From assembly GCA_036785375.1 (NCBI GenBank), contig JAWMAR010000174.1, positions 4,960,001-5,024,000 of the forward strand: a stretch of 64,000 nt of DNA, in the 5' to 3' direction. Positions 44,643 to 57,334 of the stretch are shown piece after piece; within the stretch, counting starts at the first letter, position 1; every line of letters starts with the position of its first letter. The notes under the pieces are model-generated. The model did no database searches and had not been told where the DNA came from. It saw nothing but the letters and a program-made list of their open reading frames with translations. The stretch is from Leucoraja ocellata. Taxonomy: Eukaryota. The translations under genes were made by a program, and so were the position numbers.

Positions 44643-46095
44643 AATAAGCGAGTTCGGTATTCCAAAAACCGCAAGGATTCATGGGATTTGTCAAAGGTCT
44701 TTCACCATAAACAAAAGCGAACTAGCTGGCTGAAGAAACAGTATATAAATTCTCATCTTTGTTCATAATTTATGTGTAAAAATATCTTTAATCTGAGGAA
44801 CAGGGGTGCCGTGTGGTCACATTATAGGAAAGTGAATGTATTCCAGACTAGAACACAACGATGATCGTTTCTGAGTCAAACTATCCTGCTAATACGAATA
44901 CAAATGAGCAATTAAATTCTCGATTCCAGAGAGACTCCCATAAATGGTCAACTCCTCACCCCCCCCCCCCCAAACAAACAGGGTAGCGGGAGAGCGGGGT
45001 AACAGCAACAGAGAGGGGGCAGATGCGAGTGAGAGACAGCGGAGATCACTCACAGACCTGCGCCTCATCCGGTACCTCATGGGTACCCGGCGCCGCAGGT
45101 GCTGTCGAGCCGCAGCTGGGTGTCCCATCCCAGCGGCTCCAGGCCCACAGCCAGCGCGGAGAAGAAGCGCCAACTCCAGCCCAACCCAACTCCCGAGGAA
45201 CCCGCTCGCCGAGGGGCCGGGCACCACCAGTGGCCAACCACACCCCCCCCCCCCCCCCCCCGTGCTGGTGAAGATTGAGGGGGGATCTTATAGAAACTTA
45301 CAAAATTCTTAAGGGGTTGGACAGGCTAGATGCCGGAAAATTATTCCTGATGTTGGGGAAGTCCAGAACAAGGGTCACAGTTCAAGGATAAGGGGGAAAT
45401 CTTTTAGGACCGAGATGAGAAAATCTTTTTTTAAACAGAGAGTGGTGAATCTGTGGAATTCTCTGCCACAGAAGGTAGTTGAGGCCAGTTCATTGGCTAT
45501 ATTTAAGAGGGAATTAGATGTGGCTTTTGTGGCTAAAGGGATCAGGGGGTATGGAGAGAAGGCAGGTACAGGATACCGAGTTGGATGATCATCCATGATC
45601 ATATTGAATGGCGGTGCAGGCCCGAAGGGCCTACTCCTGCACCTATTTTCTATGAGCACCAGCCTTCAATGGGGAAACACACAAAGCGCTGCAGCAATTT
45701 GGCTGCCTCTGCCTCGCCGGCTGCATGCCCGGCCCGACACCTCTGGCCACCCCCAGACAGTGACCAGACATTCGGGAGGGGACTGGAACAGCCCAGCAGC
45801 AACTCAACAGCGCCCACAGCGCCAGAGCTCCGGGCCCGACCCCAGACGAGCACGATCTCGCTCACTCACCAAAGTATAAAGCAATAAAAATGACAAAATA
45901 ATCTTAGTTTTTAACAAAGGAACAATAAACAATAATTCGTAGTTTGAAAGCTGACTCTACCCAGAAGAATCAAACCTGGAAAAAAAGGAAGAAATGAAGG
46001 TGTATATGTACACAGCTCCACTGCTTTCCAGCAATGTTTATGCATAGTGACCTTTGACCCAGGCATGCGCAGTCGGAATACCGAACTCGCTTATT
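44643..46095. mobile_element. Putative non-autonomous DNA transposon bounded by perfect 21-bp inverted repeats, containing nested insertions
   Basis: AATAAGCGAGTTCGGTATTCC (44643-44663) is the exact reverse complement of 46075-46095. Confidence 0.65.
45268..45654 (+). mobile_element. Young CR1 3' end nested in the TIR element
   Basis: High similarity to 49857-50250. Confidence 0.92.
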
Positions 46096-46554
46096 CTAGA
46101 GACTTTTTAACGAAAGCACACATGCACAGATCATTGCGCAGAAACAATTCTATAGAAATAGCCACATGGATTGAAAGAAATGTGCACACTAGACTACAGA
46201 AATCCACACAAAACTGCAGAAGCATGTGCAAGTGTTCATGGAATGATATTCACTCATCTATAAATAGCTCTCTTATCTACAAAAAACGAATTGTCTACAA
46301 AAATACATGTATCTGCACAAACTTCATTTTTACATAAGCATAAAGACATGCACAGGTAGATAGGACAATTAAAAAACAAACACATGCAGATATACGCACA
46401 CAAATCAAGTTTTTTCTCAGGTATCCATAACCAGTGTAGAAAATATACTTAACATAACTACTAATTAAACATTTGGAATCTCAAACATAGTTAATGGTTT
46501 TAATTATCAGCTAAAACAAAATTAATGTATTTATGTTGGTATCAAAACCAAAGA

Positions 46555-46573
46555 TTTAATAAGATGTTTTAAT
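46555..46573 (-). terminator. Candidate SELENOS polyadenylation signals (two ATTAAA)
   Basis: ATTAAA at 46573-46568 and 46560-46555, just downstream of the SECIS. Confidence 0.55.
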
Positions 46574-46579
46574 GTCACT

Positions 46580-46650
46580 ACCCACGCCCATTTTCAGAGA
46601 TCCTCGCTGGCAATGCCATTTACAGGGATAACATCATTCATAGCTGTCAA
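46580..46650 (-). promoter_or_regulatory. SECIS element (type II) in the SELENOS 3'UTR
   Basis: AUGAU-GUUAUCCCUGU-AAA-UGGC(AUU)GCCA-GCGAGGAUCUC-UGAA: AUGA/GA core, unpaired AAA 11-12 nt above it, apical mini-stem. Confidence 0.9.
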
Positions 46651-46800
46651 TTCATATAACGTTTCACTTGAGTAAACAATGCTCTTTACATTAAAAAGTG
46701 AATGATAAAATTTAGGTCTAACAGAAAATTGAAACTAGCTGTAACAAAATAAAATGATTGAAATTGACAAGCTAGGGAGCAGGGTAGAGTGTCCAAAGAT

Positions 46801-46829
46801 GGCCAGTAGCTCTGGTAACGCCACTGACC
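46801..46829 (-). promoter_or_regulatory. Proximal stem-loop of the SELENOS 3'UTR
   Basis: GGUCAGUGGC/GCUACUGGCC 10-bp stem (2 G-U), 9-nt loop, starting 5 nt after the TAG. Confidence 0.8.
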
Positions 46830-46834
46830 GCTCT

Positions 46835-46920
46835 CTAACCTCACGCTCCAGAAGAAGGCCCTCTGTGACCTGGTCTCCACGAACACGAACCACCGCCGTC
46901 ACCCGTCAGGGGATTAAAAC
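46835..46920 (-). CDS. SELENOS: SELENOS exon 6 ([28 protein letters not shown]), Sec UGA at 46843-46841
   Basis: tttcAG acceptor; matches recalled [37 protein letters not shown] ending. Confidence 0.96.
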
Positions 46921-47179
46921 CTGAAAGACCAACAGCAAAATACTGTGACATTTCAAAGAGCATGGAGCAGTCAGAAAATCACACTTTGTGACATGGGGTA
47001 TGGTAGTACATTGGGTACCTAAGTGGATGAGTGCCAAATATTTAGAAATGATCAATGTGCCACCATTGGCAGTGGCACATTCAGTGAAAGAATTAAAAAA
47101 ACTAAGTCTTACACTGCAGATGTCTGTTTGTGCGTGTGGGTCTCTTTACTGGAGTTCTGAGATTACATATGAAGACAGG

Positions 47180-48628: not shown

Positions 48629-48692
48629 CTCCTCTCAAGGGCTTCTTGTCAGATTTGGGTTTTGTTGCTCTTGGTGTGTTGGATTCTGGCTC
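48629..48692 (-). CDS. SELENOS: SELENOS exon 5 (EPESNTPRATKPKSDKKPLRG)
   Basis: atcAG acceptor and G|GTGAGT donor; matches recalled KSDRKPLRGG. Confidence 0.92.
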
Positions 48693-48807: not shown

Positions 48808-48897
48808 AGGATCTGTGATTGGTTTCCTCCGGGTGCTCTTTCCTTCTTGCAAATTTTCCCAGGCTTGGATTCTCTCCCTTCTTTTCTCTTCTTCAAC
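48808..48897 (-). CDS. SELENOS: SELENOS exon 4 (VEEEKRRERIQAWENLQEGKSTRRKPITDP)
   Basis: gcAG acceptor and GTAACA donor, 90 nt; matches recalled [21 protein letters not shown]. Confidence 0.93.
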
Positions 48898-50320: not shown

Positions 50321-50427
50321 TTCTTTCTGTTTCTCTTTGTATTTCGCTGCTTGGGAATCCAGTTCTTGCTGCATGCGATGCCGAGCAGCATCCATTGCTT
50401 CCTGCCGTCTCACAATTAATGATGGTT
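50321..50427 (-). CDS. SELENOS: SELENOS exon 3 with p97/VCP-interacting motif (EPSLIVRRQEAMDAARHRMQQELD...KQKE)
   Basis: gtccAG acceptor and GAA|GTAAGG donor, 107 nt; R-x5-AA-x2-R VIM. Confidence 0.95.
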
Positions 50428-51766: not shown

Positions 51767-51910
51767 CAAGTTCAGCCTCCGTGGCCTGTGGCTGCTGGCG
51801 GCTCTTCAATCGCATTATGGAACCAATTCTCTGAAGGACAAAGTAGCCAGCCACGCAGCTGAAGAAGATGTACCAGCCATATTCTGAAAGGATGTGGAGC
51901 AACTGTGTCA
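51767..51910 (-). CDS. SELENOS: SELENOS exon 2 with transmembrane helix (VTQLLHILSEYGWYIFFSCVAGYFVLQ...EAEL)
   Basis: tttcAG acceptor and G|GTACAG donor; YGWYI motif. Confidence 0.94.
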
Positions 51911-55088: not shown

Positions 55089-55929
55089 TCCAAAACTGCA
55101 GATGCTGAAGATATACAAATTGTGCACAAACTTAGCAGGTGTAGCCAGGCAGGCAAGTCTCACATTAACAACTCATTACACAGACCATGAAACCTAATGT
55201 GGCAGTAATTACTACTAGTAAGCCATTTTCACTCATTGTATCACATTTGTTCTACCCATCTCTCCCTGACCTCCCCTCCTACTGAAAATCAGTGTGTATT
55301 TTCCCTTTCCAGTCCAGACGCAAAATGTTGATGGTTTCTCTTCTCACAGATGCTGCTAGACCTGCTGAATTGTTAGAAAAATTTCCTGCTTTTGTTCAAA
55401 TCTGTACATTAAGCACCTTCAGATTTACCTTGATTTTACTAGCAATTATTTTTGATGCAGCTTTTTTGCTATTAATTTCCTTGTTAATTGCATCCCTGCA
55501 CCTGCTTTATTCCTTCAAGCTATGATACAGAAGGAAGCCAAATAGTCTATATTGGTTTGTAGTTAAACATTCTAAGGCAATTTAGATTTTTGTTTCACAG
55601 AGTAAAAGGATAAGAATGCAAATGAAACGAGGTAAGGGGGAAATTCAAAGAAAATGGTTTTAGCTCAAAATTTCTCACTGCAACTCCCCCTCCGGCACCA
55701 ATCTCCTCCTCCCTCCACAATCTCTCCTCTCCTCTCCACCACCCCCTCCCCCTCTCAGACTGGAGCCCAGCTCTCCCCGCACTCACCCTCTCTCACCCTC
55801 ACACCTGACCCTCACTCACTCCCCCCCCCCCCCACTCTCTCCCCACGCACCTGCCCCCACTCCGTCTCCCCCCCTCTCTCTCCCCCCTTCCCCTACTCTA
55901 CCAGTCTCCCCATCCCCCAAACTGTAAGC

Positions 55930-57300
55930 CCTCCACCACCTGCCATTACCACCGGCCCCTCGGCCTCCCCCACTGTACACCAGCGTACCCCCCCCGTACA
56001 CGTGTACCCCACGCTATAGCCCACGCTGTACCCCACGCTGTACCCCACGCTGTACCCCACGCTGTACCCCACGCTATACACCAGTGTACCCCACACTGTA
56101 CACCAGTCTACACTGTATACACCGTACCCCACTCTCCCCCCACACTGTACACCAGTGTACCCCACTCTACACTATACACACTCTATACCACTATCGGCCC
56201 CACACTGAACCCCAGTGTACCCCACACACTCTACACCGGTCTACACCACTATACACACACTATCTACCCACACACTACACCAGTCTACACTACACACATA
56301 TACACACACTATCTACACTGAACCACCTGCTGTCACCGCCGGCCCCTCGGCCTCCCCCACTGTACACCAGCGTACCCCCCCTGTACACGTGTACCCCACG
56401 CTATAGCCCACGCTGTACACCAGTCTACACTGTATACACCGTACCCCACTCTCCCCCCACACTATACACCAGTGTACCCCACATTATACACCACTCTACA
56501 CTATACACACTCTATACCACTATCGGCCCCACACTGAACCCCAGTGTACCCCACACTCTACACCACTATACACAAGTCTACACTATATATACACACACTC
56601 TATACCACTATCGGCCCCACACTGAACCACAGTGTACCCCACACTCTACACCAGTCCACACTATACATACACACACTCTACACATATACACACACTCTAC
56701 ACTACACACTCTACACAATCTACACTGAACCCCAGTGTACCCCACACTCTACACCCCACATACACACACTATCTACCCCACACTACACCACTATACACAC
56801 TATCTACCCTACTATCTACACTGAACCCCAGTGTACCCCACACTACACACTATCTACCCCACACACTCTACACCGGTCTACACCACTATATACCACACAT
56901 ACACTCTACACTACACACTCTACACTGAACCCCAGTGTACCCCACACTCTACACTACACACTCTACCCCACACTATATACACACACTGTCTACACAATCT
57001 ACACTGAACCCCAGTGTACCCCACACTACACCACATATACACACACTATCTACCCCACACACTCTACACATACACACACTATCTACCCCACACTCTACAC
57101 CACTATACACACATATACCCCACACTCTACACTACACACATCTACCCCACAATCTACACTGAACCCCAGTGTACCCCACACTACACCACTATACACACTA
57201 TCTACCCCACACACTCTACACCGGTCTACACCACTATACACACACTATCTACACCAGTCTACACTACACACATATACACACACTGTCTACACTGAACCAC
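55930..57300. repeat. Complex CA-rich satellite (ACTGAACCCCAGTGTACCCCACAC-based) at the start of SELENOS intron 1
   Basis: Mosaic tandem units; source of His/Thr/Tyr-rich spurious ORFs. Confidence 0.9.
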
Positions 57301-57334
57301 CTGCTGTCACCGCCGGCCCCTCGCGCTCCTCCAT
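57301..57334 (-). CDS. SELENOS: Probable SELENOS exon 1 CDS (MEEREGPAVTA + G)
   Basis: ACGATGG Kozak ATG next to a CpG-rich promoter; phase-1 donor CAG|GTGGTT (weak) fits exon 2; total 174 aa with Sec at 173. Confidence 0.72.

Follow-up and report, generated by a model that had tools for sequence, protein, structure and literature searches.

A predicted hairpin of 10 bp begins 5 nt past the stop codon of the selenoprotein S gene (SELENOS) of Leucoraja ocellata and carries in its 5' arm a weak 5' splice-site-like motif. We interpret it, with moderate confidence, as orthologous to the proximal stem-loop of human SELENOS (SL1 or PSL) and as acting as a standing mask over the weak splice site, so that the SECIS is retained in the mRNA. 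The sequences compared suggest that the hairpin and its GUYAG motif predate the separation of cartilaginous and bony fishes, a split more than 400 million years old. Masking of a donor by this stem is already in print for mammals (PMC3628699, 2013; PMC6844570, 2019), and what is new is only the occurrence of stem and motif in cartilaginous and bony fishes. No publication on the SELENOS stem or donor in these fishes was found in our searches, one of which was too broad and whose coverage left subscription journals mostly outside.

The stretch analysed (the window, 64 kb) is part of a 3.44-Gb genome and holds SELENOS on its minus strand. Two of the exons match the Pfam family Selenoprotein_S (PF06936) above cut-off, which identifies the host of the hairpin as a SELENOS ortholog. 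In a search with exon 2, two proteins among four candidates matched, one at 100% and the other, selenoprotein S of Mobula birostris, at 77%. The six exons total 525 nt (174 codons plus the stop), consistent with protein P0002, and the C-terminus encoded by the last exon reads SSGA-UGA-G-UAG on the minus strand. The gene is laid out as follows:

57301..57334, minus: SELENOS exon 1, coding part (N-terminus of protein P0002)
51767..51910, minus: exon 2, transmembrane part (77% to Mobula birostris selenoprotein S)
50321..50427, minus: exon 3 (Pfam match)
48808..48897, minus: exon 4 (protein P0002)
48629..48692, minus: exon 5 (protein P0002; loose-end letters of reads)
46835..46920, minus: exon 6, coding part (Pfam PF06936; exon 5-6 joint seen in reads)
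46841..46843, minus: UGA, penultimate codon, read as Sec by homology (same position in the metagenome loci L003-L005)
46835..46837, minus: UAG stop codon (reading of the last coding exon)

By-eye readings place a presumably SNRPA1-like gene upstream, ending at about 59885 and extending upward, and what we take to be a CHSY1-like first exon downstream (36920-36152, minus). Intron 1 (55700-57300, minus) opens with a long GT-rich minisatellite, in which the end of exon 1 recurs twice more together with its donor region, near 56340 and 55960. The residues preceding Sec (46849-46844, minus) are Gly-Ala, likewise in Mobula (P0003), and Gly-Gly in human and in L003-L005. According to PMC11568203, KLHDC1/KLHDC2 read the consensus di-Gly end, and KLHDC2 accepts some non-consensus ends. 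A SELENOS product that stops at the UGA would here end in Gly-Ala in place of the consensus di-Gly and may, to judge from these residues, be turned over differently in batoids.

The hairpin and the motif embedded in it occupy the following positions:

46801..46829, minus: proximal stem-loop (SL1/PSL ortholog), arms 46829-46820 and 46810-46801 with a 9-nt loop (fold prediction)
46823..46831, minus: weak 5' splice-site-like motif GCG|GTCAGT, GT at 46828-46827 (6 of 9 U1 matches)

Fold and coordinates thus confirm what the preliminary description had reported, a 10-bp stem 5 nt past the stop whose 5' arm contains this motif. The hairpin starts 11 nt past the UGA and covers UTR positions +6 to +34. 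Its predicted energy of -16.4 kcal/mol (z -3.48) was equalled by one of 200 shuffles, all ten stem pairs have a predicted probability of 1.00 within a 180-nt context, and 12 of the 6397 34-nt windows on the minus strand fold equally well. When the first 48 bases of the UTR were compared with their shuffles, they folded better than 299 of 300 in the window and than 300 of 300 in each of L003 and L004. A scan of the window against Rfam returned no family at gathering score, with just four chance-level matches near the SELENOS locus.

Positions -1 to +6 of the motif lie inside the stem, with the GT at UTR +7/+8. Donor strength was scored as pairing to the 5' end of U1 as encoded in this genome (Watson-Crick matches out of nine, and kcal/mol). 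The motif makes six matches and gains -6.3 kcal/mol, values reached by 7.1% and 6.5%, respectively, of the 4113 minus-strand GTs. Since the genuine donors of SELENOS exons 2-5 make 4, 6, 5 and 7 matches, the motif is plausible as a donor, though weak; the pyrimidine that always occupies +3 in the fish sequences and in human is a weakness in this respect. Three further GTs (46869, 46839 and 46623) reach 6/9 among the 27 listed between 46918 and 46500, and two of these donor-like sites, both in the last exon, 46839 (GAG|GTTAGA, spanning the Gly and stop codons) and 46869 (CAG|GTCACA), lie outside the 10-bp stem. Freeing motif positions -3 to +6 has a predicted cost of 13.1 kcal/mol. A GTYAG placed entirely in the 5' arm is found in 4 of 492 stable 36-nt hairpin windows of the 64 kb.

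Scanning metagenome contigs with a codon pattern for the SELENOS C-terminus gave three loci (L003, L004 and L005), all of them last exons of SELENOS that contain UGA-Gly-stop as well as a SECIS-like element. L003 is a teleost (91-92% to eelpout proteins), L004 appears teleost-type from its likeness to L003, and L005 appears tetrapod-like, judged from its C-terminal peptide. One more match, in genome contigs (L006), was a chance hit: it lies in bacterial DNA, is preceded by stops and enters none of the counts; the same pattern found no locus in viral contigs. A related species (organism C) contributed one contig at a depth of 35, with 21 differing letters over 46070-47050, of which 20 are listed. 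For human, both arms were taken by eye from the primers designed for the loop deletion and the stem mutants (supplement of PMC6844570), unmutated positions being assumed wild type, and the stem so reconstructed spans UTR 3-36, as that paper states. The human donor GT was placed at +8/+9 from the variant-1 sequence given in PMC3628699 (Fig. S1), with which the site between nt 13 and 14 given in PMC6844570 disagrees.

Alignment with MAFFT left the 3' arm of the window out of register with the teleost-type loci because the loop lengths differ, and the pairs are therefore listed by position from the donor G, in the order human, window, organism C, L003, L004 (L005 was left out; the human and organism C rows were read by eye):

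+1: G-C in all
+2: U-G, U-G, U-G, U-A, U-A
+3: U-A, C-G, U-G, C-G, C-G
+4: A-U in all
+5: G-U, G-C, G-C, G-C, G-C
+6: U-A, U-A, U-A, C-G, A-U
+7: G-C, G-U, G-C, G-C, G-C
+8: U-A, G-C, G-C, G-C, A.C mismatch

The covariation check proposed earlier, here on five sequences only, found 39 of the 40 cells at +1 to +8 paired, with two-sided changes at three positions: +3 (U-A versus C-G, with U-G as an intermediate in organism C), +6 (U-A, C-G and A-U) and +8 (U-A versus G-C). One-sided changes occur at +2, +5 and +7. In the 5' arm, G+1, U+2, A+4, G+5 and G+7 are constant in all five sequences. Invariant columns number five of eight in the 5' arm and two of eight in the 3' arm, a difference that is not significant (hand-calculated one-sided Fisher p of about 0.16). 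From cartilaginous fish through the teleost-type loci to human, the U1-read positions stay fixed while their partners change, a pattern pointing to the donor motif. Both stem changes of organism C keep the pairing, an observation that is weak alone, since 12 of the 20 possible stem transitions would do so too. RNAalifold on L003 and L004 recovers the same outer helix, with one two-sided change in 11 pairs. These two loci are identical at 31 of 39 positions over UTR 5-43 and at 11 of 37 ungapped positions beyond. Their motifs, CGG|GTCAGC in L003 and AAG|GTCAGA in L004, lie at UTR +6 and each reach 6/9 against U1. L005 has a GT at +9 with 4/9 U1 matches and no AG at +4/+5, hence no GUYAG, and its stem is weaker (z -2.2, matched by 7 of 300 shuffles). 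The hairpins of L003 (703-750) and L004 (753-800) contain an additional inner helix, and their 3' part carries three TGAC repeats; as each repeat can pair with the GUCA of the motif, the alternative folds of both loci all keep the motif paired, including the other registers that L004 can adopt.

The motif is thus found in five of the six sequences examined, few as these are (four lineages). The antiquity proposed in the preliminary description for the hairpin and its embedded motif is borne out, since the window, the related species, the two teleost-type loci and human share them in register with compensatory changes, L005 being without the motif. The description had also held that the primary sequence differs from the human one. 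This understated the likeness: counted by eye, the 5' arm equals human at seven of nine positions from the donor G.

The RNA reads used come from a close relative of L. ocellata (organism B, 82% of words shared; tissues unspecified). About 5 in 100 of each of two polyA runs (X23 and X24) were sampled and mapped over 45670-47050; a single-cell run (X21), with about two reads at the site, was uninformative and was left out of the depth count. The joint between exons 5 and 6 served as positive control and is visible at 46922, where 59 and 47 reads have loose ends. At 46829/46828 the two polyA runs have neither a joint nor a loose end among those listed, the smallest of which have 17 reads (X23) and 11 reads (X24); a further 3 joints and 179 loose ends exist besides those listed, so this absence is weak evidence. 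Depth passes the site without a step, from 128 reads (83 + 45) at 46832 to 125 (81 + 44) at 46826, and is 139 at 46865, 132 at 46819 and 139 at 46808. Provided that read turnover is ordinary and that spliced reads are mapped and counted at 46832, the probability of a net drop of at most three reads is 0.61, 0.24, 0.064, 0.023 and 0.0006 for 2, 5, 8, 10 and 16% use, respectively. Use of the site at 10% or more is therefore unlikely in the close relative (p of about 0.02), 5% use is compatible with the depth, and so are the lowest of the 5-16% values known from human. A SECIS-less product might be unstable. The reads of the close relative continue past the site through the SECIS. The junction search suggested in the preliminary description thus gave no listed joint and no depth step, in one close relative and two shallow polyA runs that are compatible with 5% use; the "on/off switch" that it had proposed finds no support at 46829|46828 in these reads.

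Downstream of the hairpin lie:

46592..46637, minus: SECIS-like element (pair list; alignment with L003 and L004 and, by eye, with L005)
46499..46573, minus: three ATTAAA poly(A)-type signals at 46573, 46560 and 46504 (sequence)

The SECIS-like element has an AUGA core, a 12-position helix II with three inner mismatches, an AA loop, a small apical helix and UGA(A). Two organism C changes in it keep or gain a pair. No SECIS model of Rfam matched at the locus, and the element was called by anatomy and homology. Molecule ends cluster at 46527 (9 molecules, one run). Depth falls near 46500, 46300 and 46100 (46100-46500, minus), which suggests that, past the main end at about 46527, two or more extended forms of the 3' UTR exist. 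Just behind the UTR, a 1.45-kb element (44643-46095) with perfect 21-nt terminal inverted repeats (44643-44663 and 46075-46095) and a second, inner inverted pair is likely, by its sequence, a non-autonomous DNA transposon; the right part of the element has a high copy number in both DNA and RNA. It carries an acceptor-like site (45977-45976) and a donor-like GTGAGT near 45868. Among the joints listed for the close relative's reads over 45670-47050, none leads to this acceptor-like site.

In the masking explanation the hairpin would fold on the nascent RNA before U1 pairs. By predicted energies, opening it would cost about 13 kcal/mol and U1 pairing would gain about 6; as the cost exceeds the gain, the site would be used rarely or never, and the SECIS would be kept in nearly all SELENOS mRNA. 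In primates, where a downstream acceptor exists, 5-16% would leak through as the SECIS-less variant. That the ray site would splice once the stem opened is a putative step of this explanation. Weighing against it, a simple mutation of the GT would remove the risk, yet the motif persists; moreover the site is weak, equal against U1 to three nearby GTs, and L005 has a weaker stem without GUYAG. In favour of the explanation, in human cells the PSL was deleted, disrupted or replaced with no drop in Sec recoding, and no active role is assigned to it (PMC6844570, 2019). With the PSL dispensable for Sec insertion there, splicing is left as its authors' candidate role: they propose that the PSL is perhaps conserved to prevent the variant-1 splice. 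The same paper raises the question of what conserves the PSL when Sec insertion does not depend on it, and the fish sequences sharpen this question; their hairpins are natural variants of the motif, and they show no new mechanism and no switch.

A role in translation, with the hairpin acting like an SRE or as a spacer by the Sec and stop codons and GUYAG riding as a passenger with no splicing function outside primates, is possible but rather unlikely. It would suit the start of the hairpin 11 nt past the UGA, the retention of a stem without the motif in L005 and the fact that use of the site was not seen in the close relative's reads. SL1 near the UGA promoted Sec insertion in vitro (PMC3628699), and six of eight mRNAs with a C-terminal Sec can form post-stop stems, those of TR1 and SelK without a splice site (PMC6844570). 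Against these stand the human cells of PMC6844570, in which recoding was not lowered when the PSL was removed, disrupted or replaced, and the constant 5' G-U-x-A-G, which structure alone does not predict while the partners at +2 and +5 vary. The human premise of the preliminary description divides along this line: the stem and the donor position are in print, as is the proposal that the stem masks the donor (PMC3628699 and PMC6844570), whereas on modulation of Sec insertion the human data conflict and the premise is partly outdated, no active role in cells being described in the latter.

Stronger forms of splicing control fare worse. That GUYAG has been selected since the jawed-vertebrate ancestor as a structure-gated U1/splice site, switching SELENOS to a SECIS-less mRNA by tissue or stress, we consider improbable; if true, an ancient control would survive visibly in the primate variant, which would then be no recent leak. 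That the stem opens in some tissue or stress and the donor of rays then removes the SECIS by splicing, as it does in primates, is quite improbable. The motif and register equal those of the human donor, organism C carries the exact human hexamer, and position -1 is G in each of the four fish sequences, nearer the consensus than human; there is the acceptor-like site downstream of the SECIS, and the human variant is highest in testis (GTEx data; PMC5133445). Against regulated use, the two polyA runs gave no listed joint or loose end and no step in 128 reads, the acceptor-like site sits in a high-copy repeat, and even for human the available parts of PMC6844570 and PMC5133445 do not demonstrate regulation.

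U1 affects 3' end processing. The motif might bind U1 (or a protein) without splicing, for example to steer downstream poly(A) choice, with the stem setting its availability; the invariant positions include those read by U1 (+1, +2, +4 and +5), several poly(A) signals lie within 330 nt, and depth shows short and longer UTR ends. We regard this as very unlikely, as the stem is predicted closed with probability 1.00. An ordinary hairpin with an incidental GT is hardly credible: 7% of GTs do score equally against U1, but the post-stop position and register are the same across the five tabulated sequences and nearly all their cells pair, and chance as the origin of the stem is refuted by the pair-keeping changes in organism C, the shuffle tests and the RNAalifold helix.

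Among known systems, the post-stop stem-loops of SELENOK and TXNRD1 (PMC6844570) share the place of the hairpin right past the stop in mRNAs with a C-terminal Sec and differ in that, per the authors, no splice site lies in them. The SRE of SELENON is likewise a stem-loop a short distance downstream of a Sec UGA (PMC3628699 and PMC8704476); it lies in coding sequence 6 nt past the UGA and stimulates recoding, whereas the L. ocellata hairpin follows the stop at a distance of 11 nt from the UGA, and cells can recode without its human ortholog. The closest system is human SL1/PSL. PMC3628699 (2013) covers SL1 and the covariation of the stem across 36 species (32 mammals, two birds, a frog and Ciona, with no fish), the primate SECIS-less variant at a level of 5-16% and the sequestration of the donor in the stem. 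The L. ocellata hairpin differs from it in a stem of 10 bp rather than 14-15, a longer loop (9 nt), G at -1 (U in human) and C at +3, and in the spliced SECIS-less product, 5-16% in human and not seen in the polyA reads of organism B, with which 5% use is compatible. Both lie directly past the stop of SELENOS with a donor-type GT in the 5' arm (UTR +7/+8 here, +8/+9 in human), and they share nine pairs in register from the donor G and six of nine matches to U1, the human matches being counted by eye.
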